Shown here piece by piece: positions 9,266 to 35,768 of a stretch of 64,000 nucleotides of DNA. The stretch lies in NCBI GenBank assembly GCA_964195405.1, contig CAXMPK010000029.1, positions 33,229 through 97,228 on the forward strand, in the 5' to 3' direction. The DNA is from an uncultured Acidimicrobiia bacterium (lineage in GTDB: Bacteria; Actinomycetota; Acidimicrobiia; Spongiisociales; ZC4RG35). Every line of letters starts with the position of its first letter. Within the stretch, counting starts at the first letter, position 1. Below the pieces are notes generated by a model. The model did not search any database. It was not told the DNA's origin and saw only the letters and a list, made by a program, of their open reading frames with translations. The position numbers and the translations under genes are program-made.

Positions 9266-9783
9266 CTCGGCCTCCGTCGATGATGAGCCAACGCAATCGC
9301 GCCGGCGGCGGCGATCGTCAGGAGTAGAGCAGTCGCTTCGAAGGCCAACACCCAGTCTGTGAAGAGGGGAGCGGCAACAGCCTCGACTGTCCCGTTGGTG
9401 GCATTTGCGTTGATGGTGGAGCCGGCCGGCACCCAATCGAAATCTCCGAATACCGTCACTCCACCCACCAGAAGGACCATTGCCCCGGCGATCCCGCCAA
9501 CGATCGCCCTTTGGTGGGGCAACGCCTCATCACGTGATTCAGACTTGTCAACACCGATCAGCATGATCACGAAAAGGAAAAGTGTGAGCACCGCCCCCGC
9601 GTAAACGATGACCTGGACAGCAGCGACCAGGTGGGCGAGTTGAACTACGTAGATCACCGCCACCGAGAACAAGGTTCCGAGCAGCCCCATTGCCGAATAG
9701 ACCGCGTTTCGGGCAACCACAACTGTCACCGCACCGGCAATGGCCGAGATCGCCATGAGAACGAAGAGGATGGCTTCAACCAT
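9262..9783 (-). CDS. nuoJ: NADH-quinone oxidoreductase subunit J
   Basis: 173 aa from [20 protein letters not shown] overlaps the nuoI stop by 8 nt. Hydrophobic NuoJ-like N-terminal half. Confidence 0.88.
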
Positions 9784-10432: not shown

Positions 10433-10434
10433 GA

Positions 10435-13943: not shown

Positions 13944-15376
13944 GAGGCGCCCCCGACACGATCCACATCTTCGCCTGTCATTTCTGGGGGACGACCCCCA
14001 GAACCCCTCCCGCCGCTCGTTGAGAGATCCTCTTCACTGCGGCGGTCACCTTCATTGGTCCCGTCTGGTGCCCCTCGCGTCGTAGGCAGAAATGGACACC
14101 CGCCCGCATCTACGTGAGCATCGACCTCGCCGCGGAAGTAGCTCCTCAGCGCCATGATCGGGGAGACAGCCGAAGGCCCCAGCGGACAGATCGTGGTCAT
14201 CCTCGGGGGCCAGGCGAGACCAATGCTGATCCCGTCGGAAACATCAACCATCAGATCGAGGTCAACAGCCCGGCCCTGGCCTTCCTCGATCCGACGCAGG
14301 ATCATCTCCAGCCAGGTGGTGCCTTCGCGACAGGGTGTGCACTGGCCACAAGACTCATGGGCGAAAAACCGGACGATCCGCTCTGCTGCCCTCACCATGC
14401 AGGTGTTCTCGTCCATGACAATCACGGCACCGGAGCCAAGCATCGAACCGGCCGCGGCAGTGGCCTCTTTGGTGACCTCCAGGTCGAGATGCTGGTCGGG
14501 AACAAACCAGGGTGCAGAGGCGCCACCGGGGATCCAGGCCTTCAATTTCTTGTCGCCGGTGATGCCACCACCGATGTCGTAGATCAGCTCGCGCCAGGTA
14601 ATCCCATGTGGAAGCTCGTAGTTGCCGGGCCTGTTGACGTGGCCTGATAACGACATCATGAAGGTGCCCGTGTCGTCGTTGCCGGTGAGCTCGGCGTACT
14701 CACCGGACCCCATCGAGAGGATGTGGGGCAAATTGGAGACTGTCTCAACATTGTTGACGATCGTCGGCATCATGTAGAGGCCTTTGGCCGCCGGGAAATA
14801 GGGTGGCTTGAGCCGGGGCTCGCCACGCAGCCCTTCGAGGGAGTTGATCAACGCTGTTTCCTCACCACAGATGTAGGCGCCTCCACCGAGATGAACGGTC
14901 ACCTCCAGGTCGTAGTCAGATCCAAAAATCCCCTGCCCCAAGTATCCGATCGCATAGGCCTCGTCGATGGCGGCTTGCACACGTCTCGCCGGTTTTGGGT
15001 ACTCGCCACGTATGTAGACGAAAGCATGATGAGCCTCGTTGGCGACTGCGGTGATGATGATCCCCTCGATCATCTGATGAGGATCGCGCTCCAGCAATTG
15101 ACGGTCCTTGAAGGTCCCGGGTTCCGACTCGTCGGCATTGATCACCAGATAGGAAGGTCGGGCCGGGGCAAGGAAGCTCCACTTCAGGCCGGCCGAGAAC
15201 GCGGCCCCGCCACGTCCGAGAAGGCGGGACGCCTTGACTTCTTCGACCAACTCTTCGCGGGACGAGTCCATGGCACGTTTTGCCTGGATGTACCCACCTG
15301 TGGACTCATAACGATTGAGAGTGTGTGAGTCGGTTGGATGATCGGTCATCCGTCTTGTGACCAGAAGTGTCGTCAA
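13940..15376 (-). CDS. nuoF: NADH-quinone oxidoreductase subunit F with Gly/Arg/Glu-rich C-terminal tail
   Basis: GRGGAAFSAGLKWSF (FMN/NADH site) and ESCGQCTPCREG (4Fe-4S). TTG start in a TTGA overlap with the nuoE stop; ATG at 15349 is the alternative. Confidence 0.9.
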   Translation of the reverse strand: MTTLLVTRRMTDHPTDSHTLNRYESTGGYIQAKRAMDSSREELVEEVKASRLLGRGGAAFSAGLKWSFLAPARPSYLVINADESEPGTFKDRQLLERDPHQMIEGIIITAVANEAHHAFVYIRGEYPKPARRVQAAIDEAYAIGYLGQGIFGSDYDLEVTVHLGGGAYICGEETALINSLEGLRGEPRLKPPYFPAAKGLYMMPTIVNNVETVSNLPHILSMGSGEYAELTGNDDTGTFMMSLSGHVNRPGNYELPHGITWRELIYDIGGGITGDKKLKAWIPGGASAPWFVPDQHLDLEVTKEATAAAGSMLGSGAVIVMDENTCMVRAAERIVRFFAHESCGQCTPCREGTTWLEMILRRIEEGQGRAVDLDLMVDVSDGISIGLAWPPRMTTICPLGPSAVSPIMALRSYFRGEVDAHVDAGGCPFLPTTRGAPDGTNEGDRRSEEDLSTSGGRGSGGRPPEMTGEDVDRVGGAS

Positions 15377-15996
15377 CCGCCACCCTCACTTCCAACGGTG
15401 CCCAGCGGTTGGAACGCCGGGTATGGGCCTATCGCACCGTCCTCCTCGCTGATGCCCCAGTCGAAGCTGCGGGGGCCGCCAAAAAGCTCTTGCATTTCGT
15501 CGGTGTTGACCACTTTTGGTCGAGCGGTCCGGAGCCACCTGACAAGCTCACGTGCCTTCTCCGGTGTCACGCCTTCGATCAACTCATAATTGACCTGGAC
15601 GGCCGGGGCGCCACCGCACGCACCGATGCATTCGACGTGTTCAACCGAAAGGAGGCCCTCGTCGTCTGTCTCTCCATGGGGCACACCGGACTCATCCTCC
15701 ACAGCCCCCAAAATGTCATCTCCCCCAAGAAGCATGCAGGAGATCGAGGTGCAGCAGGAGAGGAGGTATTCCCCGGTGGGCTCGCGTTTGTACATCGTGT
15801 AGAAACTGGCGACAGACCTGACCTGGGCGGGTGTGATCCCGCACCAGACCGCCACTTCAGCCATTCCATCATTGGTCAAATAGCCGTCTTCTGCCATAGC
15901 CAAATAGAGCAGGGGCATGACCGCAGATCTCTTCTCCGGGTATCGGGAGATGATTTCGCGGGCCCGTTCCTGGGTGGTCTCGGACCATAGACTCAT
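15373..15996 (-). CDS. nuoE: NADH-quinone oxidoreductase subunit E (2Fe-2S)
   Basis: From MSLWSETTQERAREIISRYPEKRSAVMPLLYLA. Cys ligands in CCTSISCM and CIGACGGAP. The upstream part of the 260-aa track ORF overlaps the preceding gene and is not used. Confidence 0.88.
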   Translation of the reverse strand: MSLWSETTQERAREIISRYPEKRSAVMPLLYLAMAEDGYLTNDGMAEVAVWCGITPAQVRSVASFYTMYKREPTGEYLLSCCTSISCMLLGGDDILGAVEDESGVPHGETDDEGLLSVEHVECIGACGGAPAVQVNYELIEGVTPEKARELVRWLRTARPKVVNTDEMQELFGGPRSFDWGISEEDGAIGPYPAFQPLGTVGSEGGG

Positions 15997-16056
15997 CGAA
16001 GGCGGAGAATAGGGGTTCGGAGGAGTGCTAGTGAAACCAGGTTCAAGCCATTTTTC

Positions 16057-16093
16057 TGAACCAAAATGTCGATCCAGACACAGATTTGGTTCA
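16057..16093. repeat. 9-bp perfect inverted repeat (TGAACCAAA-N19-TTTGGTTCA) in an AT-rich spacer, overlapping the stop codon of the kinase-aminotransferase gene
   Basis: Read directly: 16057-16065 tgaaccaaa and 16085-16093 tttggttca. Lies in the 94-nt gap between the inserted gene and nuoE. Confidence 0.6.
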
Positions 16094-18328
16094 TAAACGG
16101 GCCATCGAGTCCTCCAATGCCTCGATGAAATGGTCGACATGGCTGTGTTGAGCAATCAGCGGCGGGCGTAGTTTCAGAATGTGACGTGCTCCCCCGGCCG
16201 CACCCACCAGCACGCCGGCGATCCTCATCAGCTCAATCAGCTGCTTTGTTGCAGCCGTGGCCGGCGTTTTTGTGTCCCGATCGGTCACCAGTTCCAGACC
16301 CACCAATAGACCGGATCCGCGAACATCCCCCACCAGCTCGTTCTTTTCAGACAACCCCCTCAACGAATCTCTCAGATACCTTCCGACCACAGCGGAGTTC
16401 TCCACCAGATGCTCGCGTTCGATCACATCGAGCACGGCAAGTCCAGCGGCACACGAAACCGGGTTGCCGCCAAATGTGGAGAACAAAGATGAGTCGGCCA
16501 TAAATTCGTCGAGGATCTCCCGACGGGTGACCACCACACCAAGGGGCACTCCGTTGCCAACAGGCTTACCAAGAGTGACGAGGTCGGGGACAAACCCCTG
16601 ATGTTGATGCCCCCACATCACCCCGGTACGGCCAAACCCGGTCTGGACTTCATCGGCCACCACAAGACCGCCCTGGGAGCGGACGGCATCGGAAACAGTG
16701 GCAAGGAAGCCTTGCGGAATCGTCGGAATTCCGTTGGAGGTGAGTGCAGGATCGACAAAGAAGCCGGCCAACCCGTCGATGTCTTCAATTTCGGGAGAGT
16801 TCGCTCGCCCCCGATATGAGTCGGGCGGAGCCAGAGTGATGACGTTGGAGTCACCGGAACTGTCTGCATCGGTGATGGCCAAAGCTGCCTCGGTCAGTCC
16901 GTGATAGGCGCCCTCCATCACCAGCAGACGGTTGGCCTTCGACCGATGCTTGAGGATCTGGCTGGCAACGTCATTGGCTTCACTTCCGGAATTGACGAAG
17001 AGACACACGTCGAGATCGTGATTGAGCATCGCGGTGAGGCGCTCGGCGTATTCGACAGCAGGTGAATAGAGGTAGCGAGTGTTGGTGTTCAAGGTGGCCA
17101 GCTGCCGACTCACCGCGTTGACCACTTGGGGATGGTTGTGACCCACCGTTGGCACGTTGTTGTAGAAATCGAGATATCGCCGACCGTCGGACCCATCCAT
17201 CCACATTCCCTTGGCGGCGACCACGTGCAGCGGATTCACGTAGAAGTGGGGTGAGTTTTCCCCAAAGAGCGAGGTCCTCTGAGTGGCGAGGTCGGTCCCA
17301 TGTTGACGAGACAGACCAAGCACTCGTTTGATCTCGTCGGTCAACCCGGGCGCGGCAGCCACGGTCGATGCGATCCGCTCCCACAGCAACTCCTGATCCG
17401 ACCCGTAGTGGCTCTCGTCGGGGAACAAGCCGGCTCTCGCCGCAACGATGGTGGTGCCCATTGCCAAACGGGCCAGGACCAGATCGTAGAGAACATCCAC
17501 TTCGGCGGTCTCGAGAGGTGTCACCGAGTCGTAGCCGAGCACGATGTCGATGAGAGCCTCGGCGGCCCCATTCGGTCGGCCGGAGGGATCTGCGGCCACT
17601 GCAATCTCGGCGATGAGCGGACCGTAAACCATATCTCCAAAGTCGATGATCCCGGCTATTTCAGCCGGGTTCCCCGGGTGGACCACGAGATTCGAGGTGT
17701 AGACATCCTGATGGATCAGTTGATGGCGAAGACCCAAGCAAGCAGGGATGGTGTGGTCGCGGACCTGCTCCAGGATGGCGACCACGCTACGTCGGGCACC
17801 TTCATCGGAGATGTGATCGACTTGGTCGAGAAGTCGCGGCACTCTCATCAGATCCCAGGGATGATCCTGATTGGCAGCCGGGTGAAAAAATCCGCGAAGT
17901 GCCCTGTCCAGCCGTGCCACGGCCGCGCCAGTGTTGTACCGAAACTCGGGAGTGTCGTACTCGGGTCGGTCGGCAACAACGCCGTCGAGAAATGACATCA
18001 GACGTACGACGTGTGAGGCTCCGTCAGCTGTTTCGATCCTTGCCTTGTCGTCACCCGTGAGAGTTGGCACCGACCGAGGCACCGGAAAGGTCGGATCGAC
18101 TCGCTCGATGTGTTTGAGGGCCTGAATCTGGAGGTCGACAACCGACTCGTCTTCGTCGGCGTTGCAGATCTTGAAGAGATAAGAGATGTTTTCGGTGTCA
18201 ACACGGAAGTTCTGATCTCGCTCGCTTTCGAGCATCAGGAAATCACCAGTGACGCCATATTGGGTATCGAGAAGGTTGGCGGCCTCGGTAAGAGCCAAAT
18301 CCGGTGAGTTGCGCTTCAGGAACTTCAT
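16091..18328 (-). CDS. fusion protein: APH/choline-kinase-type phosphotransferase domain plus class-III PLP aminotransferase-fold domain (AGXT2L-like phospho-lyase type)
   Basis: N-terminal ~330 aa carry the kinase catalytic loop HQDVYTSNLVV and IIDFGD. The C-terminal part carries SGSEANDV, ADEVQTGFGRTG and the TLGKPVGNG Lys motif. 745 aa. Sits between nuoD and nuoE. Confidence 0.8.
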   Translation of the reverse strand: MKFLKRNSPDLALTEAANLLDTQYGVTGDFLMLESERDQNFRVDTENISYLFKICNADEDESVVDLQIQALKHIERVDPTFPVPRSVPTLTGDDKARIETADGASHVVRLMSFLDGVVADRPEYDTPEFRYNTGAAVARLDRALRGFFHPAANQDHPWDLMRVPRLLDQVDHISDEGARRSVVAILEQVRDHTIPACLGLRHQLIHQDVYTSNLVVHPGNPAEIAGIIDFGDMVYGPLIAEIAVAADPSGRPNGAAEALIDIVLGYDSVTPLETAEVDVLYDLVLARLAMGTTIVAARAGLFPDESHYGSDQELLWERIASTVAAAPGLTDEIKRVLGLSRQHGTDLATQRTSLFGENSPHFYVNPLHVVAAKGMWMDGSDGRRYLDFYNNVPTVGHNHPQVVNAVSRQLATLNTNTRYLYSPAVEYAERLTAMLNHDLDVCLFVNSGSEANDVASQILKHRSKANRLLVMEGAYHGLTEAALAITDADSSGDSNVITLAPPDSYRGRANSPEIEDIDGLAGFFVDPALTSNGIPTIPQGFLATVSDAVRSQGGLVVADEVQTGFGRTGVMWGHQHQGFVPDLVTLGKPVGNGVPLGVVVTRREILDEFMADSSLFSTFGGNPVSCAAGLAVLDVIEREHLVENSAVVGRYLRDSLRGLSEKNELVGDVRGSGLLVGLELVTDRDTKTPATAATKQLIELMRIAGVLVGAAGGARHILKLRPPLIAQHSHVDHFIEALEDSMARL

Positions 18329-18368
18329 CTGGCTTGCTCGAGAAGGAAAGGTCTACAGATCAAATAGC

Positions 18369-18490
18369 GAGCTCATCGTTCTGCAAACCGATCTCATCGG
18401 TCGACAGAAGGATCTCATCGTTCTTCAAACCGATCTCATCGGTCGACAGAAGGATCTCATCGTTCTTCAAACCGATCTCATCGGTCGACG
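18369..18490. repeat. 42-bp tandem repeat, 2.9 copies, last copy overlapping the nuoD 3' end
   Basis: Unit is gatctcatcgttcttcaaaccgatctcatcggtcgacagaag. Copies lie at 18369-18410 (40/42), 18411-18452 and 18453-18489. Each contains the reverse complement of GTCGACCGATGA (Val-Asp-Arg-stop of nuoD). Confidence 0.95.
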
Positions 18491-19845
18491 TCACCCATCA
18501 CCGGGTCCATCGAGGCGATGGTGGCCACAGTGTCTGCCATCAGGCTGTCGGCCATGGTGATCGGCAACGACTGAAGGTTGTAGAACGAGGGTGCCCGAGT
18601 GTGCATGCGATAGGGGTTGGCCTTCCCATCGGAGACCAAATAGCAGCCCAACTCACCCCTTGGGGACTCGACAGCCACATAGGTCTCACCGGGCGGAACC
18701 TTGAAACCCTCTGTGAACAGCTTGAAATGGTGGATCAACGCCTCCATCGACTCGTCGATCCGTGCCCGGGGTGGGGGAGTCACCTTGCGGTCGTCGACGC
18801 GATAGTCGCCTTTGGGCATCGCATTCATCACCTGCTCAACGATCTTGAGTGACTCGACGATCTCCAAGACCCTGACCCGATAGCGGTCGTAGACGTCGCC
18901 GTTCTCACCGGTGATCACCTCAAACTCATACTTCTCGATTCCCGAATATGGGAAGACCTTCCGCAAATCCCAGTCGACGCCGGTGGCCCGAAGGATTGGC
19001 CCCGTGATCGAAAAGGCGATGGCTTCCTCCTGAGAAATCACGCCGACGCCACGGGTTCGGGCAAGCCAGATCGGGTTTTCCTTGAGCAGATCGTCGTACT
19101 GGTCGAGTCGCCCGGGGAGGTCGGCAAGAATCGCCGAAACGTCGTCTTTCCAACCCGGAGCCAGATCGGCGGCAACTCCGCCGGGACGGATGTAATTGTG
19201 ATTCATCCGAAGGCCGGTGGTCTTCTCGAAGAACGCAAGGATCGATTCGCGCTCACGAAATCCGTAGAGCATCATTGACAAAGCCCCGATGTCCATGCCG
19301 TTGGTGGCCAACGCCACCAGATGCGATGAGATCCGGTTGAGTTCGGTCATCAGGATCCTGATCGCAGCTGCCCGCTCCGGTACTTCGATGCCCAAGAGAC
19401 TCTCAACAGCAAGCGAGTAAGCCAGCTCACAGTGAAGTGGCGCCAGATAGTCCATACGGGTGACGTTGGTGGGTCCTTGACCAAAGGTGAGCTGCTCGGC
19501 CGTCTTCTCCATACCGGTATGGAGGTATCCGATAATCGGCTTGGTCCGGCGGATTATCTCGCCTTCGAGCTCAATCTGGAGACGCAACACGCCATGAGTC
19601 GAAGGATGTTGTGGCCCCATGTTGACAATCATCCGGTCGTCGTCCGCGACCTCGTCGTCGAACACGTAATCGTCTTCGACCACCGAACCAAACTGCTCGG
19701 CGAGACGCTCCTTCGACTCAGCCGAACCGATCTCCTGATCACCCTCGGTCGTCGGCTGGAACTCAGCCTCCTCGGTTCCGGCAACCCAGAGATCCACAGT
19801 CTCGGGCGTCTCGTTTGCGCTGTCGATCGTCGTCTCGTCAGCCAT
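18478..19845 (-). CDS. nuoD: NADH-quinone oxidoreductase subunit D
   Basis: NMGPQHPSTHGVLRL, ends ...MGDVDR. About 70-aa acidic N-terminal extension. Start overlaps the nuoC stop (TGATG). Confidence 0.92.
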   Translation of the reverse strand: MADETTIDSANETPETVDLWVAGTEEAEFQPTTEGDQEIGSAESKERLAEQFGSVVEDDYVFDDEVADDDRMIVNMGPQHPSTHGVLRLQIELEGEIIRRTKPIIGYLHTGMEKTAEQLTFGQGPTNVTRMDYLAPLHCELAYSLAVESLLGIEVPERAAAIRILMTELNRISSHLVALATNGMDIGALSMMLYGFRERESILAFFEKTTGLRMNHNYIRPGGVAADLAPGWKDDVSAILADLPGRLDQYDDLLKENPIWLARTRGVGVISQEEAIAFSITGPILRATGVDWDLRKVFPYSGIEKYEFEVITGENGDVYDRYRVRVLEIVESLKIVEQVMNAMPKGDYRVDDRKVTPPPRARIDESMEALIHHFKLFTEGFKVPPGETYVAVESPRGELGCYLVSDGKANPYRMHTRAPSFYNLQSLPITMADSLMADTVATIASMDPVMGDVDR

Positions 19846-20372
19846 CAGTCGACCTTGTGGGATTCTTTGAACTGGACAGGTACCGACCCAACACCAAAGT
19901 CCTTGCGCAGCGGATGTCCATCCCAGTCGTCTGGCATCAGGATTCGGGTCAGATCGGGGTGGCCGTCGAAGATGATCCCAAACATGTCGTAGACCTCACG
20001 TTCAGCGAAACCAGCGCCCGGCCATAGTGGCGTCAACGACTCGACTGTCGGATCCTCGCGGCCGATTGTGGTGCTGACACGAAGTCGAATGCGGTGCCTC
20101 ATCGACAACAGATTGGCCACGATTTCAAAGCGCTCAGGGCGTTGCCGCATCCAGTCGACGGCGGTGACGTCACAACAAACTTCGAATCCGGCCTTTTTGG
20201 CGGCCTCGGCAAATGCCTTCCAGGAGTCCGTTGGGACAGATGCGATGTCCTGACCCAGGGACTGTGAAAACGTCACATCCTCGAACCCCTCGGCGAGCCC
20301 AGCGAGTACCTGATTCATCTGAGGTTCCCAGTCACCGGACCACCCGATCTGGCCGGACGTTCCCGATCGCAT
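19845..20372 (-). CDS. nuoC: NADH-quinone oxidoreductase subunit C
   Basis: FAEREVYDMFGIIFDGHPDLTRILMPDDWDGHPLRKD. Start uncertain: ATG at 20372 lies 16 nt after the nuoB stop, or ATG at 20318. Confidence 0.85.
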   Translation of the reverse strand: MRSGTSGQIGWSGDWEPQMNQVLAGLAEGFEDVTFSQSLGQDIASVPTDSWKAFAEAAKKAGFEVCCDVTAVDWMRQRPERFEIVANLLSMRHRIRLRVSTTIGREDPTVESLTPLWPGAGFAEREVYDMFGIIFDGHPDLTRILMPDDWDGHPLRKDFGVGSVPVQFKESHKVD

Positions 20373-20388
20373 CGGGGACAATGCGATT

Positions 20389-20856
20389 TCATCGGACGAT
20401 TTCTCCCGCCATGATCTTGTCGTGAAGGGTGAGGATTCCGTGCAGGAGACTCTGTGGTCCCGGTGGGCAACCGGGCACATAGATGTCGACAGGGACGATC
20501 TGATCGACACCCTGGATCAGGGCATAGTTGTTGAACATCCCACCGGACGAGGCGCAGGCGCCCATCGAGACCACCCACTTCGGATCAGGCATCTGGTCAT
20601 AGACCTGTCGAAGCACCGGGGCCATCTTTTGGCTGACCCTTCCCGCAACAATCATCAAGTCAGCCTGCCGAGGCGAAGCACGGAACACCTCCATGCCAAA
20701 GCGAGCCAAGTCGTAGTGGGCGGTTCCAGTCGCCATCATCTCGATCGCGCAGCAAGCAAGGCCGAAGGTCGCTGGGAACATCGAACGGGTCCGTGCCCAG
20801 TTCGCAGCCCTCTCAACGGTGGTCATGAGAAGGTTGCCGGGAGGAGTGGTTGCCAC
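20389..20856 (-). CDS. nuoB: NADH-quinone oxidoreductase subunit B
   Basis: [22 protein letters not shown] and GCPP Cys ligands of cluster N2. GTG at 20856 ([15 protein letters not shown]) lies 11 nt after the nuoA stop; ATG at 20826 is the alternative. Confidence 0.9.
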
Positions 20857-25493: not shown

Positions 25494-26471
25494 GTGGTTG
25501 AAGCGCTTCGCCAAATAGGGAAAGGTGGAGCCGTGGCAGACCAACGTGCGATAGAGAAGCTCGCCGCAAATCAACATGGTGTATTCAGTGCTACCCAAGT
25601 GAGAGAAGCCGGATTCAACCGTCACGCGGTTCAGAGAAAGCTGGCATCCTCGAGGTGGGTTCAACTCGACTACCGGGTGTTTGGGGTTGCGTCAGCACCG
25701 TCGACTTGGGAACGCCAGATGTGGGTTGCGATTCTCAGTAGACCCACGGCCTCGGTTGGAGGCCGTTCGGCCGCCTACATGCACGGACTGCGAGGGTTTG
25801 CACAAGGCCGTCCGGTGATCGTCGTGCCAGGCAGCTCCAACGCACGGTCAGAGGTCGCTCGGGTAATTCGTGCCGAGCATTATCCGGAGCTGAAAGCCGT
25901 CAATGTTGCTGGATTTCCAGTGACATCCGTCGCGGAGACAATCGTTTGCCTGGCGTCGGAACTAGGTCCCGGTCACCTGGAGTCAGTTTTCGACGACGCC
26001 CTGCTCGCCCACAAACTCGATCTCCATGATGTGGGTGCAATCCTCGAGCGCGAGATTGGACGGCGTCGCAGGGGCATCGTGCGAGTCAGAAACCTCTTCG
26101 AAGAGAAGGGTGAGGATGCCCCGACCCTGGATGCGAGCTACTTAGAAGGCATGCTCGAACAGCTCATCAATCGGGGTCCCCTGCCAGTCTGGGATAGGGA
26201 ACACCCTGTCCTCCTCTCCGGTCGACGATCCCGTGTCGACCTGTTCATCCCGGATTGGCAACTCGTGGTGGAAGTAGACGGGAGATCGTGGCATGCCCGG
26301 ACCGACGCATTCGAGTTGGACCGAGAGCGCGATAACCAACTCGCCTCCCGCGGCATCCAGGTCCTTCGCTTTACGTTCCGCATGCTCAAGGAGGATCCGG
26401 ACGCATGTTTTGAGATAATTCTGGCGACAGGCCACGCTCGCAGCGTCGAGGCGGGGGTCGAGCGTGCATAG
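25494..26471 (+). CDS. AbiEi-like HTH N-terminal domain / DUF559 (Vsr-like endonuclease fold) C-terminal domain protein
   Basis: N-terminus KLAANQHGVFSATQVREAGFNRHAVQRKLASSRWVQLDYRVFGV. C-terminus VDLFIPDWQLVVEVDGRSWHARTDAFELDRERDNQLASRGIQVLRFTF, typical of DUF559. Confidence 0.75.
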   Translation: MVEALRQIGKGGAVADQRAIEKLAANQHGVFSATQVREAGFNRHAVQRKLASSRWVQLDYRVFGVASAPSTWERQMWVAILSRPTASVGGRSAAYMHGLRGFAQGRPVIVVPGSSNARSEVARVIRAEHYPELKAVNVAGFPVTSVAETIVCLASELGPGHLESVFDDALLAHKLDLHDVGAILEREIGRRRRGIVRVRNLFEEKGEDAPTLDASYLEGMLEQLINRGPLPVWDREHPVLLSGRRSRVDLFIPDWQLVVEVDGRSWHARTDAFELDRERDNQLASRGIQVLRFTFRMLKEDPDACFEIILATGHARSVEAGVERA

Positions 26472-26518: not shown

Positions 26519-26884
26519 TTAGGTGACGGCCCCTTCTTGGGACTCTTCGAATTGGTGGAGAGCCACCAGGAAGACCAGAAAGAGAACAAGTGAAACCAGT
26601 AGATAGGTGATTGGGATCACCCTTATCTCGAGGGAGTTGAGACCTTCGATATTGTCGGGCTTCGGTCCGCGCGGCGCGTAGACCACAAAGAGCATCGACG
26701 TGATCGAGAGCCAACCGAAGACGGCAGCACCGGTTACCAAAAACCCAAGCTTCTTACCGAGGTTGGTGTAGCTGAAGAGATAGATCGACCCGAAGAACAA
26801 CAGCACTGCTGCGGCGAACAGCAGAACCCCGGTGACAAAGAGATTCGCCGAGAGAAGTGATCTGAAAAGCTCACGGAAGAACAT
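26519..26884 (-). CDS. small integral membrane protein (4 TM), last gene of the Rieske/cyt b operon
   Basis: 121 aa, hydrophobic. Start overlaps the cytochrome c stop by 14 nt. No family recognised. Confidence 0.55.
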   Translation of the reverse strand: MFFRELFRSLLSANLFVTGVLLFAAAVLLFFGSIYLFSYTNLGKKLGFLVTGAAVFGWLSITSMLFVVYAPRGPKPDNIEGLNSLEIRVIPITYLLVSLVLFLVFLVALHQFEESQEGAVT

Positions 26885-28595: not shown

Positions 28596-29477
28596 CTACG
28601 CACCACCGATACAGCTGGGGCCTTGGGGGTAATTGATTGTCAGGATTGGCGCCCGCGGAGTCTCCACGACCTGACCGGTGCGGATGATCAAACGATTGTT
28701 CTGGTTTTCGACGACGAAACGGTCGAGGTTGCGGGGAGCGGGGCCGGCAAAATACTGGCCGATCGAATTGTATTTCGACCCATGGCATGGGCACTCAAAA
28801 CCCTGTGAAGGACCACACCAGGGCACACGACACCCAAGGTGGACACACCTTTGGAACAGAGCCATCAGATTGTCTGTGGTGACACTCCTTCCGGCGAACT
28901 GCTCGGAGACGGACGAGGCAGGAGCTGGAACGATATAGGCCTTGGCCTCGGGGACGAACAGTGGCAGGATCGATCCATCTGATGCGAAGACGGCCGTCTG
29001 GATTGCGCCGATTTCACCGGCGTCAACATCAGATCCAAATCCTCCGCTCAGCTTTGGCCAGAAGAACGCCAGATAATAAATCCCCTGCATACCCAAGAAT
29101 GCGAAAAAGGTGGCGCCAAGTGCCCTGTTGAAGAACTGCCGCCGGGTAACCCCCGATTCCTCCGGCGCCACCTCGACAACACGCTGAGTCTCCAATACTG
29201 CGACTGCAGTCGTCACCGTTTCGGCAGCAGGCTCGATCTCAACCACGGCCTCTTCGGCCGCGACCTCGTCGACCGGCTGCTCATCCAGCGTCGGAATGGG
29301 ATCAACCCGGACACCGTCCATCGAGCGGTCTGACTTCAGCGTCTCGTTGCTCAGTCCGGCGCCGGCATCGATTGGCTTCTCCTTCTCCGAACGCCGGTAG
29401 GCGATCGTAAAGGCGCCTACCGCCCCAAGAATGGCGAATAAGGCCACCCCGATCAGGACCATGTCGGTAAAACTCAT
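28596..29477 (-). CDS. Rieske [2Fe-2S] subunit
   Basis: CVHLGCRV ... CPCHGSKY Rieske boxes. Internal twin-arginine motif TRRQFFNRALGA after an N-terminal TM helix. Confidence 0.9.
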   Translation of the reverse strand: MSFTDMVLIGVALFAILGAVGAFTIAYRRSEKEKPIDAGAGLSNETLKSDRSMDGVRVDPIPTLDEQPVDEVAAEEAVVEIEPAAETVTTAVAVLETQRVVEVAPEESGVTRRQFFNRALGATFFAFLGMQGIYYLAFFWPKLSGGFGSDVDAGEIGAIQTAVFASDGSILPLFVPEAKAYIVPAPASSVSEQFAGRSVTTDNLMALFQRCVHLGCRVPWCGPSQGFECPCHGSKYNSIGQYFAGPAPRNLDRFVVENQNNRLIIRTGQVVETPRAPILTINYPQGPSCIGGA

Positions 29478-30448
29478 TCGAAGTCGACCCAGTCCTTTAA
29501 GTCATCAAAGAAGATGCCGTCCTTCCAGGGATATGACCAGTTGAACCCCTTCCCTCTGAACAACACGCCGATGATGGTGAGGGTTGCCGAGCCGGCCAGG
29601 AAGATGGAATAGAGAAGAATTGCGAATTTGCGGTCGCTGGGTCGAGTCGACGGGTTCTTGTCAACAAACGGCACCATCATGAAACCGATCAAACCGACGA
29701 ACAACGGGACTAAGACTCCGGCCACCTGGGGATCGAAATAGCTCAGCAGCTCCTGAAGCCCCAAGAAGTACCACGGCGCCTTTGATGGGTTGGGTGTGGC
29801 GTTGAAGTTGGCTGGATCCAGCAACGGCGAGTGAATGACCACGGCCATGATCACCAAGATTCCGGTGATTAGAAGCAGCGCTCCGAACTCCATGAGCATT
29901 AGGTGTGGCCAGGTATTGACCTTGTCCATCGGCTCGGCTTTGACGTTTTGAATCGCCCGGGCTTTGACAACCGTGAGCAAGCGTTGGGTGCGGACACCCT
30001 CCGGTGTTCCGGTCGGTGGCACCGATGGACGGGGGCTGACCAGCCCAGCAACCTTGCCGTTGCCACCACCGTTGGTCTCGGGATCCGGTGGCTCGGCTAC
30101 TTCTTGCTCGTCTTCTCCCACCTGCTCGGCAGGAGAAGACTCAACGAGAGCGGCAACCACAACCGGTGTTTTCTCTACTTCAGCCACCGACTCTTCAACA
30201 ATTGGTTCGGACTCCGATTCGGACTCGAGTTCGGGTTTGCCGCCTTCCGCAACCATGGCGGCCGGAGACTCAGCCGGATCGGGGTTCTCATCGACTTCAA
30301 CAACGTCTTCGACCAATGCAGTCACGGGTACTTCGACCGGGGGACCTTCGCCTTTCATCTCGGCCAACACCTGCTCAACCGGCACACCTAGCGCCTTGGC
30401 CTTCGCCTCTGCCGATCTCCTCAAGAGACTCTCTGGGATTTCAACCAT
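29474..30448 (-). CDS. cytochrome b C-terminal-half protein (b6f subunit-IV-like) with a long acidic N-terminal extension
   Basis: C-terminal ~170 aa with KAPWYFLGLQELL (PEWY-region equivalent) and 3 TM helices. ATG at 30448 is preceded by GGAG. The N-terminal ~150 aa are acidic low-complexity, preceded by the module IPESLLRRSAEAKAKALGVPVEQVLAEM. Confidence 0.8.
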   Translation of the reverse strand: MVEIPESLLRRSAEAKAKALGVPVEQVLAEMKGEGPPVEVPVTALVEDVVEVDENPDPAESPAAMVAEGGKPELESESESEPIVEESVAEVEKTPVVVAALVESSPAEQVGEDEQEVAEPPDPETNGGGNGKVAGLVSPRPSVPPTGTPEGVRTQRLLTVVKARAIQNVKAEPMDKVNTWPHLMLMEFGALLLITGILVIMAVVIHSPLLDPANFNATPNPSKAPWYFLGLQELLSYFDPQVAGVLVPLFVGLIGFMMVPFVDKNPSTRPSDRKFAILLYSIFLAGSATLTIIGVLFRGKGFNWSYPWKDGIFFDDLKDWVDFE

Positions 30449-30458
30449 TGAATACTCC

Positions 30459-31235
30459 TTACAAGGGACCCGAGACGCCGCCATCTTTGCGGACCCGCCA
30501 GAAATGAATCGCCATGAAGATCACGATGATGAATGGGAACGCCAGCACATGGAGCACGTAGAAGCGAAGCAAGGTGGCTCCGCTTACCTCGACACCCGCA
30601 AGCAGGGCGAATTTGACCTGGTCACCGATGATCGGCGAGAAACCAGCCATATTGGAGCCCACTGTCACGGCCCACAAGGCCAATTGGTCCCATGGCAGCA
30701 GGTATCCGGAGAAAGACAGGAACAGTGTCAGGAAAAGAAGCACGACTCCAACTACCCAGTTGAACTCACGTGGCGGCTTGTAGGCACCGTGATAGAAGAC
30801 ACGGCTCATGTGGAGAAACACCGACAACACCATGAGGTGAGCTCCCCATCGGTGGATGTTTCTCACCAATGAACCAAACGCCACATCGGTGGAGAGCGCC
30901 TGCATGTCGGGATAGGCCAGCTCAGCGGTTGGCGTGTAATAGAACATCAAGAAGATGCCGGTGATGGTGAGGACGATGAACAAGAAGAAGCTGAGACCAC
31001 CGAGACACAAGGTGTAGGAAAGCTTGACACCATGACGCTTCACCTTGACGGGATGGAGGTGGTAGAGGACGTTGTTCATCACGACATAAGAACGGTTTCT
31101 GGGGCTGTCCGAGTAGCCCTGCTTGAAAGGCGAGCCGGGACGGAGGATGGCTCCGACAAGCTGGCTGTTCCACAGTTTCTCGTTGGTCTCCTTAACCCGC
31201 TCTTTGAGCCCAACTTTGCCGTTGCCGTTAGCCAT
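30459..31235 (-). CDS. cytochrome b6-type (N-terminal-half) cytochrome b
   Basis: His pairs [15 protein letters not shown] (14 apart) and [16 protein letters not shown] (15 apart, the b6-type spacing). YTLCLGG matches the b6 FYCLGG heme-ci Cys region. PWDQ motif present. Confidence 0.88.
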
Positions 31236-31253: not shown

Positions 31254-31703
31254 CTACCAGCGCATTCCATACGAGTACCCATTCTTGAAGTCACGCTGCC
31301 CAGTGTCGAAATCCCATGGGCGACGGTCGAGACCGAGTTCCGACGCCTGATCTGCCAACGAGCCTTCGAATTTGCCAAGAGTGATGACATTGGTCGGGCA
31401 CCGATCGATACACAGCGCGCATCGGGTGCACTCGTCCTCGTCAACGATGAAGAAACCGTAATTCTGTTCGTCGTCCTGTGGGTGGTCGACATTGACAGCC
31501 TCCGTGATCGCGTCCAGTGAGAGATAGTGGATACACTTCCAGGGGCAGATGTCGACACAGCCTTCGCAAAGGATGCACTCCGACTGGTCGATGTGAAGGA
31601 ACTGCTTAGGACGCAATTTGTCCGTGAAATAGTCACCGTCCACAACGGCAAGCTGGTAGTCATCCCGGATCGGTGGGGTCTCATCAACTACTCCCTTGGG
31701 CAT
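31254..31703 (-). CDS. 2x[4Fe-4S] ferredoxin-domain protein
   Basis: CILCEGCVDICP and CTRCALCIDRCP. ATGA overlap with the upstream membrane-protein gene. GGAGAG RBS for the downstream cyt b6 gene. Confidence 0.85.
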   Translation of the reverse strand: MPKGVVDETPPIRDDYQLAVVDGDYFTDKLRPKQFLHIDQSECILCEGCVDICPWKCIHYLSLDAITEAVNVDHPQDDEQNYGFFIVDEDECTRCALCIDRCPTNVITLGKFEGSLADQASELGLDRRPWDFDTGQRDFKNGYSYGMRW

Positions 31704-32383
31704 CAGCCATCACCTTTGACCAAGGGGCGTCCGTATGGTGACTTCTGTTCGACTTGCTGGGCACTAGCCGGGCGACCCTTCTTGATGTTTTGGATCTGGA
31801 TCGCCAGGACAGCACCAAGCCCTAGCAACGCCAGGACATAAGTCTGAGAAATAGTGTCCTTGATCACTTTGTAACTGATCTCAACCGCGTTCCCCAACAC
31901 CAAGATCGGCGGGATCACCAGGAATGTGTCGTTGCCCCACTCCAAATCGGTCTGTGCAAAGTTGAGCCACTCGGAGGGAACGATCCCGAAGAAGAAAAGG
32001 AGGGCGACCCAGGTGATCATTGCCGCAACCGTGGCCCGAGCCCAGGTCATTCTCTGGTTGAGAACCCAAAGCATCAAAGCGCCGATCAAGGCAAACGTGG
32101 TGGCACCCCCGATGATGAGATAGGCAGCACCTTTCCACAAGACACCTCTTGGGAACCAGTTCATGGTGTCGACGACAAAAGGCATTTCGATCCCGTTGAC
32201 CACCTCGGTTTCGGGGAAGCTGGCCCAATGGAGCCAGATAATTCCGAGCACCAGACCAATGAGTCCACCAAGTAGCAGGACGAGGCCAATCGTCTTGCGC
32301 TTTGCGTCGCTCAGTTCTCCTAGGCGGTACATCTCAATGACATCTCTGGGTGGGTCCGGGTGTGTCCATTCGCTGTTGGCCAT
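31703..32383 (-). CDS. integral membrane protein (4-5 TM), first gene of the Rieske/cyt b operon
   Basis: 226-aa hydrophobic ORF translationally coupled to the ferredoxin gene. No family recognised. Confidence 0.55.
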   Translation of the reverse strand: MANSEWTHPDPPRDVIEMYRLGELSDAKRKTIGLVLLLGGLIGLVLGIIWLHWASFPETEVVNGIEMPFVVDTMNWFPRGVLWKGAAYLIIGGATTFALIGALMLWVLNQRMTWARATVAAMITWVALLFFFGIVPSEWLNFAQTDLEWGNDTFLVIPPILVLGNAVEISYKVIKDTISQTYVLALLGLGAVLAIQIQNIKKGRPASAQQVEQKSPYGRPLVKGDG

Positions 32384-32513
32384 TTTCTACCACACGACGG
32401 GGTCGCGTATATAACCCACGCAGCGGTATTGGCTCGTATTGAAATGTAGCGGCGGAATGGATTCTGGAAGTAGTTATGCTCCCGCCGGTCTCATCGTTTG
32501 ACAGGGAAGACGC

Positions 32514-33953
32514 TTGGCCGAGACCCAGACAGCACAGATTCGAGCCCTTTTGGGCGGTGGAACGAGCGAAGACCGTGTGGCTGCCACCCACTTCATGGTC
32601 GGAGCCGGTTTCCTCGTGTTAGGCGGTGCCTTGGCCCTCCTCGCCTTGCTGTCGATCCGCTTCGCCGACTTGTTCCCCATCACCTACGGGAGGCTCGAGC
32701 CGATGGCAAATCTGACCTTGATGTTTGGCTTTGTTGTTGTCTCTCTGGTGGGTGGCATCTACTACGTGCTTCCGCGGCTGACTGGCACCCGACTTTGGAG
32801 CGCTGATCTCGCCGCCTCAGGTCTGTTGGGCATCTCCGGGCTTGTCGTCTTGGGGCTGTTGGTCATCGGGTTTGGATTTGGCAGTGGACGTCAGCCTCTT
32901 GGACTCCCGTGGTGGTTCCACATCCCGATGCTTCTTCTCCTAACGCTGCCGCTGATCATCACTGTCGGAACGATCAACAGACGTGAGGAGAAGCGGAGCT
33001 TTGTGACTCTCTGGTTCGTAATGGGCGGGGTTGTCTGGCTCCCTCTTCTGTACCTCGCATACTTCGTCGGGGATTTGCCTTCACTCGGTGCTGTTGCTGT
33101 CGAGTATTCCAACGTTTTCTTGTCGGCCGGTTTCGTGACAATGTTCGTTTTCACCGTGGGTACGGGTCTCTTCTATTACACGGTGGTCAGGGAGCTCGAC
33201 GTGTCCCTGGCCAGTCGTCAGTTGGCTCTGGTCGGTTTCTGGTCTCTTGGGTTTGCCGCTGCGTGGTGGGGCGCCGCTCAGCTTATTTTTGGGCCGGCAC
33301 CGGCTTGGGTCGCCGGGGTGGCTGCTGCACTTGGTCTGGCGTTTCCGATCGGAACCCTCGCCAACGCCGCCAACGTCTCTTTGACCCTGGAGGGCTCGTG
33401 GGGCGATCTGTCCGAGAAGCCCGGTGTCACTGCCGGGATATACGGTCTTTATCTCGCCGTCGCCGTTGCAACACTCGCCGCTCTCGCCGGATTCAGGTCT
33501 ATCGCCTCCGTCACGTCGCTGACTGCTTTTTGGGAAGCAATCGAATACGCGGCAATTGCCGGTCCCGGTGCCCTACTCGTCGCCGGTGTCAGCTTCTCCG
33601 CCTTACCGCGTCTGGTGGGTCGAGAGATTTCCTCACTCAAGAGAGCTCGATCATTCAGCCGCCTTACCGTTATCGGGTCTATCGGCACTCTTCTGTTCAT
33701 GTCTGCCGCCGGGATTCTCTCCGGCTATTCGTGGATAGGCGGATCGAACACGGCGGCGTACATCGATGCAGGTGAGGGATGGGCGGCGGGGCTTGGGACC
33801 AGTTTCGAGACACTCATGCTGGTTGCCATTGGTTTCGCCTTCGTTACTTTCGCCGGCCAGCTTGCTTACGCTGCCACGATTTTCGGCACCGTCACCACCG
33901 GTAAGGCAACCACTCAGGAAGTTCTTGTCAGTAGGGAACCTGGCGATGAGTGA
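32514..33953 (+). CDS. heme-copper oxidase subunit I-like (CcoN-like) 12-TM protein lacking the canonical histidine ligands
   Basis: 479 aa. Segments GRLEPMANLTLMFGF, LWFVMGGVVW, FWSLGFAAAWWGAAQLIFGPAPAW and SLTAFWEAIEYAA align (from memory) to CcoN ligand regions but carry A, M, AQ, E and A in place of His. Only 2 His in the whole protein. TTG start. Confidence 0.6.
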   Translation: MAETQTAQIRALLGGGTSEDRVAATHFMVGAGFLVLGGALALLALLSIRFADLFPITYGRLEPMANLTLMFGFVVVSLVGGIYYVLPRLTGTRLWSADLAASGLLGISGLVVLGLLVIGFGFGSGRQPLGLPWWFHIPMLLLLTLPLIITVGTINRREEKRSFVTLWFVMGGVVWLPLLYLAYFVGDLPSLGAVAVEYSNVFLSAGFVTMFVFTVGTGLFYYTVVRELDVSLASRQLALVGFWSLGFAAAWWGAAQLIFGPAPAWVAGVAAALGLAFPIGTLANAANVSLTLEGSWGDLSEKPGVTAGIYGLYLAVAVATLAALAGFRSIASVTSLTAFWEAIEYAAIAGPGALLVAGVSFSALPRLVGREISSLKRARSFSRLTVIGSIGTLLFMSAAGILSGYSWIGGSNTAAYIDAGEGWAAGLGTSFETLMLVAIGFAFVTFAGQLAYAATIFGTVTTGKATTQEVLVSREPGDE

Positions 33954-34734
33954 CCTCGTCGCCGCCGCCGCCGCCGCGATGGGTCTTCCCGAGGTACTGG
34001 TCCAACGGTCTGCCGAAGCTAGAGCTGCTGACACCGGGGCAAGCGTCGACGACCTGCTCGCTGCATGGGCAGGTGGAGCACCGGCACCCGCAGCGGTGTC
34101 TGCCGAACCGGTGGTGGGTGATGCTCCGACGGAGGAGCCTGCCGCCCCTGAAGTGGTGATCGAGGTGCCAGCTCAAGCGCCAGCCGAAGTACCAGGCGAA
34201 GTACCAGCCCAAGCGCCAGCCGAAGCGCCGGTTGCTGCGCTTGCCTCGGAGGAGAGGCACGGCCCCTATGTGCCCCCGGTCCTGGTCGGGAGTCGGGACA
34301 ACCCGATGACAGTTCTTGTCGGTGCCGTCGCTCTGTTCGTCTTGGTGGCACTCGTTGGCCTGGTTGGACCTTCGCTCCAGGCCGAAACACCCGGAGCCCT
34401 GTCAACCAACCTCCCATACACCCAGCTGGCAGTGGACGGACAAGAGATTTATGGCAACCTCGGCTGCGCCGCCTGTCACACCCAGATGGTGCGGCCGGTC
34501 ATCGCGGACGTGGGGCTGGGCCGGGTCACGCTCAACGACAGCAACCAGATACTCGGCACCCGCCGCTTTGGGCCCGACCTTTCCAACGTTGGCTCGCGTG
34601 TTTCCGCCACGCAGCTACAAGCCACCGTCGAAGGGCAACTCAACGGGCATCCGAAGTACACCATCAACCCTCAGGACATGAGTGCGTTGGTGGCGTATTT
34701 GAGTGAATCGGTCACGGCCGGAGAAGACGGATGA
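33946..34734 (+). CDS. CcoO/FixO-like monoheme cytochrome c subunit with N-terminal cytoplasmic extension
   Basis: YTQLAVDGQEIYGNLGCAACHTQMVRP ... GTRRFGPDLSNVGSRVS ... MSALVAYL parallels CcoO (EGCxxCHSQMIRP, RTGPDLxRVGxRYS). ATG overlaps the upstream stop by 8 nt. Confidence 0.75.
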   Translation: MSDLVAAAAAAMGLPEVLVQRSAEARAADTGASVDDLLAAWAGGAPAPAAVSAEPVVGDAPTEEPAAPEVVIEVPAQAPAEVPGEVPAQAPAEAPVAALASEERHGPYVPPVLVGSRDNPMTVLVGAVALFVLVALVGLVGPSLQAETPGALSTNLPYTQLAVDGQEIYGNLGCAACHTQMVRPVIADVGLGRVTLNDSNQILGTRRFGPDLSNVGSRVSATQLQATVEGQLNGHPKYTINPQDMSALVAYLSESVTAGEDG

Positions 34735-35768
34735 GTCTCACTGGCGCCGCCGCCGCCATGGGTCTTCCCGAGGAGCTGGTACAACGCTCCGCCGAAGCGA
34801 GGGCAGCCGATACCGGAGCGACGGTCGACGAAATCCTGGCGGCTTGGGCAGGAGGCGAGACAGCTCCAGCTTCAGCGCCGGCCGAACCCGCAACCGAATC
34901 GCCTGTTGAGGACGTTGAGCCGGAGACGGTGCCCGATGTAATCGAGGCGATCCCTTCTCCCCCGGTCATCGAGACAACTACCGAATCGACTTCCGAGGGC
35001 GGACAAGCCACACGAGCCCCGCTTCCCACTGAGGTCACCGCGGCTGAGGCCAGACGTCTTCCCGAGGTGGTCACGGTGCCCACAGCCGGCATCAAAGAGC
35101 AAACCAACTTCGTGATTCCGAAATGGCTCACCGTGGTGATGTTGGTCGTGCCGCTTTTTGCCCTTTTTGCCCTGGGCGGGGCCTCGACCGGTGCATGCGG
35201 TGAGGCCACCGAACTCGAGACAAATGTCGTGACTGGCGAGATCGTCAACTGCGACGGTTCCGAGTTCACCGGCTCGGAAATCGGCGGAGGTGGCACCGAC
35301 TTCATCGCCCTTGGCGGAGATATCTACAACGGCGCAGCCGTCACCGGCGTGAATTGTGCGGGTTGTCATGGGGCCAACGGCCAGGGTGCCGGTGCCTTCC
35401 CCGCCTTGACTGGAGTCCTCACCACATTCGGGACCTGCACAGACCACATCGAGTGGGTCACTGGTGGCTCCAGTGCCTTCACCGGGCAGGGCAGCTACGG
35501 CGACACCAACAAACCGGTGAGCGGCGGGATGCCGGCATTCGGCGGATCTCTAAGTGCCGACCAGATCGCGGCAGTTGCGGCGTTTGAACGGGTCCGTTTT
35601 GGCGGAGACGACTCAGACACTGCGCCCGTAGATTGTGGCTTGGTCGCCGAAACCAGCAGTGACGACAGCGCCGGCAGTGAAGGCAGCACTGAGGGCGGCG
35701 GCAATGGCGAAGATGAAGACAACGCCGACGGGGACACAACGGATGCCTCCGCCGCCCATCTCGGCTAG
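34731..35768 (+). CDS. membrane-anchored class-I cytochrome c (possible CcoP-like partner) with the same N-terminal module
   Basis: CAGCHGANGQG heme site and GGMPAFG Met ligand. One TM helix (WLTVVMLVVPLFALFALGG). ATGA overlap with the CcoO-like gene. Confidence 0.8.
   Translation: MSLTGAAAAMGLPEELVQRSAEARAADTGATVDEILAAWAGGETAPASAPAEPATESPVEDVEPETVPDVIEAIPSPPVIETTTESTSEGGQATRAPLPTEVTAAEARRLPEVVTVPTAGIKEQTNFVIPKWLTVVMLVVPLFALFALGGASTGACGEATELETNVVTGEIVNCDGSEFTGSEIGGGGTDFIALGGDIYNGAAVTGVNCAGCHGANGQGAGAFPALTGVLTTFGTCTDHIEWVTGGSSAFTGQGSYGDTNKPVSGGMPAFGGSLSADQIAAVAAFERVRFGGDDSDTAPVDCGLVAETSSDDSAGSEGSTEGGGNGEDEDNADGDTTDASAAHLG

Follow-up and report, generated by a model that had tools for sequence, protein, structure and literature searches.

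The N-O-P gene cluster and its CcoN-like protein

The 64,000-nucleotide stretch analyzed here (the window; part of contig CAXMPK010000029.1 of assembly GCA_964195405.1, from an uncultured Acidimicrobiia bacterium) carries three genes, which we call N, O, and P, beside a divergently oriented operon for a Rieske/cytochrome b complex (Table 1). The subject of this work is N, whose product resembles CcoN, the catalytic subunit of cbb3-type cytochrome c oxidases; O resembles the CcoO (FixO) subunit and P is a second membrane-anchored cytochrome c. An original prediction, made from the DNA alone, held that the N protein has lost its heme and copper ligands while staying in an operon with heme-competent partners.

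N is a genuine C-family heme-copper oxidase (HCO) subunit I homolog. It matches the Pfam COX1 model over residues 22-407 with 71.6 bits (gathering score 34.8), and its best NCBIfam model is ccoN (TIGR00780), at 94.1 bits, under the equivalog cut-off of 583.15. CcoN chains of cbb3 oxidases also lead its sequence matches in the PDB (9g6b_A, 3.5e-17; 3mk7_A, 2e-14), and N and cbb3 CcoN have in common the cytoplasmic-loop motifs YYxxxR, Y223/Y224, and W245. An AlphaFold2 model, computed with 21 homologs as input, has twelve long helices (predicted local distance difference test, pLDDT, 83.8; predicted template-modeling score, pTM, 0.87). When this model was compared with the PDB by Foldseek, the top seven matches were CcoN chains (E values of 4e-18 to 2e-16, template-modeling scores of 0.81-0.86), with NorB weaker (E value 4.6e-9) and A- and B-family subunits I at ca. 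1e-8 to 1e-7.

The ligand sites of N are empty

Ligand columns were read against residues 33-464 of Pseudomonas stutzeri CcoN, rebuilt from a printed alignment and carrying the known ligands at the expected positions. The low-spin heme b ligands H60 and H347 correspond to A65 and Y345 of N, the high-spin heme b3 ligand H345 to I343, the CuB ligands H207, H257, and H258 to A205, A255, and Q256, and the cross-linked tyrosine Y251 to A249; in the phmmer alignment, H207 is paired with G206. The only two histidines in the entire 479-amino acid protein are H26 (ATHFMVG) and H136 (WWFHIPM), as had been predicted, and neither is at a ligand position. The original prediction also placed no histidine at any heme or CuB site, which the P. 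stutzeri alignment bears out, albeit with a correction to its four local ligand alignments. Two of these were in register, namely the change of His to Ala in the first ligand segment (H60 to A65) and that of HH to AQ (H257 to A255 and H258 to Q256). The other two, for the histidine of the sixth transmembrane helix and for the H-x-H pair, were not: the counterpart of H207 is A205 in 'NVFLSAGFVTMF' and not a Met in LWFVMGGVVW, while the pair has become I/Y (H345/H347) and not E-x-A. No alternative frame or alignment restores a histidine.

The losses extend beyond the metal ligands. P. stutzeri residues R57, R437, E122, E125, T215, S240, H243, Y317, E323, and H337, which we take to be heme-propionate or calcium ligands and parts of the proton path, read E, A, Q, G, F, A, G, A/G, L, and S/A, respectively, in N. 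A comparison with NorB of cNOR gave the same picture, in that its histidine ligands of heme b/b3 and its FeB site (three His and a Glu) have no counterpart in N, where the same columns are empty.

We then took a census of these columns in a MAFFT alignment of N with its 120 closest homologs (65-100% identity). None of the 120 relatives has a histidine at any ligand column, and the cross-linked tyrosine is likewise gone from all of them. The H60 column holds Ala in 107 and Ser in 10, the H207 column Ala in 109 and Ser in 10, and the H257 column Ala in 112 and Ser in 7; Y251 is replaced by Ala, Ser, or Gly, H258 by Gln in all 120, H345 by Ile (87) or Val (33), and H347 by Tyr (119) or Phe (1). 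Because the same substitutions occur in all 120 closest homologs, the loss is due neither to chance nor to sequencing error, and the agreement of 120 independent homologs likewise excludes a frame shift. N departs from CcoN in five features: the heme b ligands, the heme b3 ligand, the CuB ligands, the tyrosine, and the equivalog score. It is very probable that N has no canonical heme b, heme b3, or CuB site and is not an oxidase. Together, the sequence, the predicted fold, and the family-wide census identify N as a putative catalytically dead, cofactor-less descendant of the cbb3 catalytic subunit that would reduce neither O2 nor NO.

Selection and distribution of the close family

N is kept under purifying selection and is not a pseudogene. 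At least 97% conservation is seen in 122 of its 479 columns (25%), and the median ratio of nonsynonymous to synonymous substitution rates (dN/dS; Nei-Gojobori method, pairs with 0.05<dS<1) is 0.147 over 412 pairs. This is below the medians for O (0.269), P (0.201), the Rieske protein (0.189), and subunit IV (0.232); those of cytochrome b6 and the ferredoxin are 0.077 and 0.061. The view of N as a pseudo-oxidase or repurposed scaffold, unable to bind heme b/b3-CuB canonically, is thus supported on each of the points that the original prediction had named as able to overturn it: profile models give significant matches to HCO subunit I (COX1); the AlphaFold2 model superposes on CcoN with a template-modeling score of about 0.83; the histidines are not recovered; and selection is not relaxed.

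A scan of GTDB, with one genome per species, gave 241 matched stretches, of which 214 encode a relative of N. The best 80 of these 214 loci (58-81% identity to N) all come from metagenome-assembled genomes (MAGs), with no cultured strain among them. Most are labeled Acidimicrobiia or Actinomycetota, and some were assigned to Acidobacteriota, Boseongicola, or Gammaproteobacteria by the submitter. The titles 'uncultured Acidobacteriota', 'Boseongicola', and 'Gammaproteobacteria' on a locus of the Acidimicrobiia type likely reflect mislabeled or contaminated bins. Two GTDB MAGs hold two full copies of the locus each, flanking genes included (L020/L040 and L047/L048), with a dS of ca. 0.1-0.3 between copies; strain mixtures in the bin are more likely here than true paralogy. 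In the NCBI and JGI databases, relatives of N carry the name 'cbb3-type cytochrome c oxidase subunit I'.

A wider ligand-less clade

When 1.84 billion representative sequences were searched exhaustively with phmmer, N had 589 matches. Among the 104 full-length matches that were aligned, about 70 lack every ligand, and genuine CcoN (HHYHHHH) turns up only from ca. 108 bits downward. More than 30 of the ligand-less representatives are N-O fusions of 610-750 amino acids that keep the CxxCH motif; one fused protein, P0165, used as a query, matched nothing but itself. Across this wider clade, positions 258 and 347 hold R, F, D, W, L, T, and other residues. In a rough neighbor-joining tree, CcoN proteins with all ligands fall together in a single subtree, outside which the ligand-less ones form many long branches; a few partial-ligand forms lie between, and the topology is too crude to count loss events (one or several). 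The partial-ligand homologs (P0231, P0234, P0176, P0197, P0212, and P0238; for example HHQKLT, AHASVH, YHHLYQ, and HEAPHH) may represent intermediates or partial losses that arose independently.

Among representatives on contigs long enough to show gene neighbors, which many were not, some ligand-less lineages have different surroundings. One (L166) lies beside ccmABCEFH and has a FixO gene, and another (L168) has FixO as its only partner. In a third (L167, 1789-5521), the CcoN-like protein P0157, with FQVQNE at the ligand columns, has no FixO partner and follows a ccsA-like gene; directly downstream of it are genuine ctaC, with the full CuA motif and an extra type-1 copper cupredoxin, and ctaD.

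A metagenome scan with a pattern for the fused family recovered mostly genuine cbb3 genes with full ligands, one of them scoring 312 bits against Pfam. In view of that score and the ligand census, we discarded the synteny of these loci as evidence on the ligand-less proteins. In metagenomes, many genuine cbb3 operons lie within Rieske-cytochrome b-multiheme c-CcoN-CcoO-...-FixG clusters and have full ligands. Because genuine examples exist, working bc-cbb3 super-operons are a plausible ancestor, and N-O-P would likely have arisen from an ancestral super-operon of this kind, which is still intact in other metagenomic lineages.

The cytochrome subunits O and P

The predicted translational coupling of the three genes is real, with the N stop and the O start overlapping by 8 nt (ATGAGTGA, 33946-33953), and O and P by ATGA (34731-34734). 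O scores 49.6 bits against Pfam FixO (cut-off 29.6) and was aligned to residues 12-123 of 3mk7_B, a stretch that includes CxxCH-(T)Q(M)VRP and R(F)GPDLxxVG. The original prediction rightly took it for a CcoO-like protein that keeps CAACH; its sixth heme ligand, however, appears to have changed. The MPSY motif of true CcoO reads HPKY in O, after an 8-residue deletion (window positions 34630-34660, O residues ca. 229-238). The histidine of HPKY is at least 90% conserved in 79 sequences, and is Gln in a lineage with 34% identity (L084). From these motifs, the heme c of O is probably His/His-ligated instead of His/Met-ligated, a switch that would lower its potential.

P does keep CAGCH, as had been claimed, and has a conserved methionine ligand in GGMPAF and four further conserved cysteines. 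It is a monoheme class I cytochrome c and not a true di-heme CcoP: it has one CxxCH and scores 34.2 bits against TIGR00782, where the cut-off is 179.95. Neither ccoQ nor ccoGHIS-type maturation genes were found near N-O-P among the window open reading frames scanned.

The divergent b6/Rieske operon

Beyond what the original prediction covered, N-O-P faces an invariant, divergently oriented operon for a b6-type Rieske/cytochrome b complex with a ferredoxin (Table 1). The Rieske motifs CVHLGC and CPCH, the b-heme histidine pairs, and the CLGG cysteine are all visible in the window translations. Cytochrome b6 scores 295.7 bits on the NCBIfam model 'selenite/tellurite reduction operon b-type cytochrome ExtP', for which the equivalog cut-off is 290. 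Identity with Geobacter ExtP/ExtQ of the ExtHIJKLMNOPQS cluster was rejected; because none of the multiheme, porin, or rhodanese Ext genes of that cluster (PMC5877670) is present, ExtP is a misnomer here.

Table 1. Coordinates of N-O-P, the divergent operon, and the region between them, in window positions
Feature	Description	Position	Strand	Remarks
N	Ligand-less CcoN-like protein, 479 aa, 12 transmembrane helices	32514..33953	+	TTG start, intact open reading frame
O	CcoO/FixO-like monoheme cytochrome c, 262 aa, one transmembrane helix, N-terminal cytoplasmic motif	33946..34734	+	CAACH 34465-34479
P	Membrane-anchored monoheme class I cytochrome c, 345 aa	34731..35768	+	CAGCH 35355-35369
Intergenic region	Divergent intergenic region	32384..32513	.	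ca. 115 bp typical in 79 loci; range ca. 115-130 bp
TM226	Hypothetical membrane protein with four transmembrane helices, first gene of the divergent operon	31703..32383	-	
Ferredoxin	2x[4Fe-4S] ferredoxin, NuoI-like, 149 aa, ca. 90% identical across loci	31254..31703	-	
Cytochrome b6	b6-type subunit, N-terminal part of split cytochrome b, CLGG Cys of the heme ci site	30459..31235	-	Cytochrome_B, 162 bits
Subunit IV	Subunit IV-like, C-terminal part of cytochrome b, long N-terminal extension with motif IPESLLRRSAEAKAKALGVPVEQVLAEM	29474..30484	-	Cytochrom_B_C, 31.6 bits
Rieske	Rieske [2Fe-2S] protein	28596..29477	-	Rieske, 32.3 bits
Di-heme cytochrome c	Di-heme cytochrome c, 573 aa	26871..28592	-	CFDCH 28280, CARCH 27197
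Small membrane protein	121 aa, last gene of the divergent operon, conserved in 58 loci	26519..26884	-	

The true start of TM226 is probably M18, at 32332, because its homologs are 209-210 amino acids long, and subunit IV likely starts at M13, at 30448. TM226 has no Pfam or NCBIfam match, and every homolog is named 'hypothetical'; Foldseek with a poor AlphaFold2 model (pLDDT 66) gave nothing significant, the best match being NarI (E value 0.5, template-modeling score 0.36). The two heme domains of the di-heme cytochrome c are separated by an acidic insert of ca. 260 amino acids with DxDxDG-like repeats (DTDADGLSD, NPDTDGDSIGD), and homologs show a faint TSP3_bac match in precomputed Pfam annotation.

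In the intergenic region, immediately upstream of N, the element GAAGTAGTTATGCTCCCGCC (ca. 32467-32490) shows at least 80% conservation across 79 loci, against protein identities of only 60-80%. A -10 region with leader and a regulator site are candidate roles for it. A Shine-Dalgarno-like GAGGAA also lies upstream of N.

Linkage of N-O-P to the b6 complex

N-O-P is co-inherited with the ferredoxin-bearing b6/Rieske operon. When 82 related loci were searched by tblastn, the whole divergent arrangement was found wherever the contig was long enough, with counts of 82 for N, 81 for O, 79 for P, 79 for TM226, 77 for the ferredoxin, and 72 for cytochrome b6. The pairing is kept at larger distances. 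It is present at a locus with 43% identity in N (L083), where the outer flanks differ and hold heme-biosynthesis genes, in the lineage with 34% identity mentioned above, and in lineages with fused ligand-less N-O genes. At the fused-gene loci, cytochrome b6 is 76-79% identical to that of the window and N ca. 30-45%; thus, N has evolved much faster than cytochrome b6 over the long term, yet it is constrained.

A helix-turn-helix-like motif of ca. 40 residues is common to the N-termini of O (33997), P (34776), and subunit IV (30427, minus strand). It reads GLPExLVQRSAEARAADTGAxVDxxLAAWAGG in O and P and IPESLLRRSAEAKAKALGVPVEQVLAEMKGE in subunit IV, and it is at least 90% conserved inside each of the three families. 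A scan of the 64-kb window with the regular expression [LIVM][LIVM]xRS[AS]xA[RK]A, extended by ...G..V..[LIV]LA, matched only these three proteins, and the equivalent genes in ligand-less loci match as well. The same kind of scan did not find the motif in genuine bc-cbb3 loci or in two further ligand-less contexts, and Pfam has no model that matches it. In all three proteins, the N-terminus should lie in the cytoplasm. Of the hints from sequence that the products of the two operons may share one assembly, this motif, borne by subunits of both, is the best. At some loci with fused N-O genes, the cytochrome c gene that follows encodes two tandem copies of the motif (L090, 9101 and 9341).

What the N protein may do

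The explanation that we favor, and to which we give about an even chance of being right, is that N, itself without cofactors, is the platform of a cytochrome c module in an unusual type of complex III. Its 12-helix body would hold the CcoO-like heme c subunit and the second anchored cytochrome c in the membrane, and N would have been retained because that body is still the platform for O and P. N-O-P would most likely assemble physically with the b6-type Rieske/cytochrome b complex, whose further partners would be the 2x[4Fe-4S] ferredoxin, the di-heme cytochrome c, and the two small membrane proteins, and would serve it as a cytochrome c exit or relay module. The monoderm bacteria of this lineage have no soluble periplasmic cytochrome c pool. 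Electrons could leave N-O-P toward a separate terminal oxidase encoded elsewhere, or toward another acceptor, with O2 reduction itself left to a separate, genuine oxidase. The tie between N and O, seen in their translational overlap, in the CcoO motifs CH(T)Q(M)VRP and R(F)GPDL that O keeps, and in the N-O fusions, supports this explanation; the physical assembly and the electron flow are what we infer from gene content and sequence.

Several observations weigh against the platform model. A 479-amino acid anchor with 12 transmembrane helices is expensive for two heme c domains, the b6 complex already has a di-heme cytochrome c of its own, and the O heme may be low in potential, which would fit awkwardly with a simple relay to a high-potential oxidase. 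No genuine oxidase is encoded in the 64-kb window (GHPEVY, HHM, and GRQPW motifs are absent), nor is there a ctaC or ctaD within 10 kb on either side of the 169 loci surveyed. The Glrx, SAM_HAT, and CLP1 flanks are conserved too, so the close-range synteny partly reflects relatedness. Finally, selection has been tighter on N than on O or P, a hint that N may also have its own function.

Such a function could be a new one in the membrane, either a site for a quinone or another lipid-soluble ligand in the vacated heme pockets or a path for ions or protons, with the hemes of O and P serving N. We regard this as unlikely, albeit credible. N is indeed the most constrained gene of its own operon, and its replacement residues are nearly invariant in the close family (Gln256 in 120 of 120, Tyr345 in 119 of 120, and Glu62 in place of R57 in 115 of 120), with His26 97% conserved. 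Most ligand positions hold small residues (Ala, Ser, or Gly) and not bulky ones, so that a cavity might persist. However, the conservation of these residues does not extend to the wider ligand-less clade, and the residues assigned above to the cbb3 proton path have become hydrophobic or small. A more far-reaching version, which we hold with similar doubt, is that ligand-less CcoN forms a large, so far unrecognized branch of the HCO superfamily turned into the obligatory non-redox core of a new complex of b6/Rieske, ferredoxin, and pseudo-cbb3 parts. The core would then have an activity of its own and not be a mere anchor, for instance through a quinone site or ion path in the emptied heme pockets, or by coupling the cytoplasmic ferredoxin, heme ci, and the outer c hemes.

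The near-invariant residues might instead be ligands, with N binding heme or a metal through non-canonical groups such as Tyr345, Gln256, Glu62, or His26 and the complex acting as a novel terminal reductase. Tyrosine serves as an axial heme ligand in other proteins, Tyr345 occupies the very position of H347 and is all but fixed among the close relatives, and an electron sink for O and P would exist. Yet Ala occupies the partner position H60 and two of the three CuB positions, and Ile or Val that of H345; the arginines assumed to bind the propionates are gone; the candidate ligands are not conserved in distant ligand-less members; and the search of window open reading frames for ccoGHIS-type maturation genes was negative. 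We consider this proposal improbable. A decaying, functionless remnant, that is, a pseudogene in progress, has still less to recommend it. The wholesale loss of catalytic residues and a long-term divergence far above that of cytochrome b6 are what such decay would leave, but the open reading frame is intact across the relatives in the 214 matched stretches of the GTDB scan, the dN/dS of 0.15 and the quarter of N columns that are nearly invariant speak of constraint, and both translational coupling and N-O gene fusions are retained. Conservation, intact open reading frames in relatives, and dN/dS effectively refute this reading.

Relation to known systems

N-O-P is like the cbb3 oxidase CcoNOP (P. 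stutzeri, 3MK7) in the fold of a subunit I with 12 transmembrane helices, for which the leading template-modeling scores are 0.82-0.84, in the order and coupling of N and O, and in a CcoO-like partner with one transmembrane helix, CxxCH, QM(V/I)RP, and RxGPDL. It differs in that the six histidines, the cross-linked tyrosine, and the presumed calcium, propionate, and proton-path residues are gone, in the apparent Met-to-His change of the sixth ligand in O, in a P that is monoheme and not di-heme, and in the lack of ccoQ or ccoGHIS genes found nearby. The bc-cbb3 supercomplexes of Rhodobacter capsulatus (6XKW) and Pseudomonas aeruginosa (8SMR) and the metagenomic Rieske-cytochrome b-cytochrome c-CcoN-CcoO-FixG operons also couple a Rieske/cytochrome b complex to CcoN/CcoO genetically; in the solved cases the coupling is physical as well, whereas here it is seen in the genes. 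Those systems have a working CcoN (HHYHHHH), in contrast to the apparently dead module, divergent operons, split b6-type cytochrome b, and ferredoxin subunit described here.

The obligate CIII2CIV2 supercomplexes of actinobacteria (QcrCAB-CtaCDEF; 6HWH, 7RH5) offer another parallel, being from monoderm, high-GC organisms without soluble cytochrome c in which membrane-anchored c hemes wire complex III. In this case, however, a split b6 with the heme ci cysteine takes the place of a long QcrB, a ferredoxin is present in addition, and the partner module is C-family-derived and, by its sequence, inactive instead of an aa3 oxidase. Reuse of a fold as a structural element after metal loss is familiar from relic domains, such as the heme-less NorC-like domain of qNOR and the subunit II that lacks CuA in quinol oxidases and gNOR, and one active-site histidine is replaced by Asp in gNOR (Murali et al. 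2024, PMC11214002). Those cases involve one accessory-domain site or a single ligand, whereas here a catalytic subunit would be without every metal site.

The six metal-binding histidines have been treated as an invariant signature of the HCO superfamily; the broadest recent survey calls the HCO histidines 'completely conserved' save for the one His-to-Asp change in gNOR (PMC11214002). A clade under selection that has none of them indicates that the fold can outlive its chemistry. The N family would be a cofactor-less branch of the C-family HCOs, and no prior description of a ligand-less CcoN was found in the literature searched; an apparent match in a Ferrigenium preprint proved irrelevant. 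Studies of MAGs have taken cbb3 annotations in Actinobacteria and Acidimicrobiia as a sign of high-affinity (microaerobic) respiration, for example in PMC8357290. For members of the N family, that inference would be wrong. Moreover, the constant association with a b6 complex that has a ferredoxin suggests that a class of soil and marine bacteria abundant worldwide has a complex III of a design not yet described.

Other features of the window

The minus strand carries a complex I (nuo) operon at 4094-20510, with recognizable genes for NuoC, D, E, F, G, H, J, L, M, and N. A further gene of that strand, placed between nuoD and nuoE (16091-18328), encodes a 745-amino acid fusion of a phosphotransferase (APH) domain with a class III aminotransferase. 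A DUF559/restriction-endonuclease-like gene (25494-26471, plus strand) adjoins the end of the b6 operon and is not at that position in two related loci (L001 and L002).

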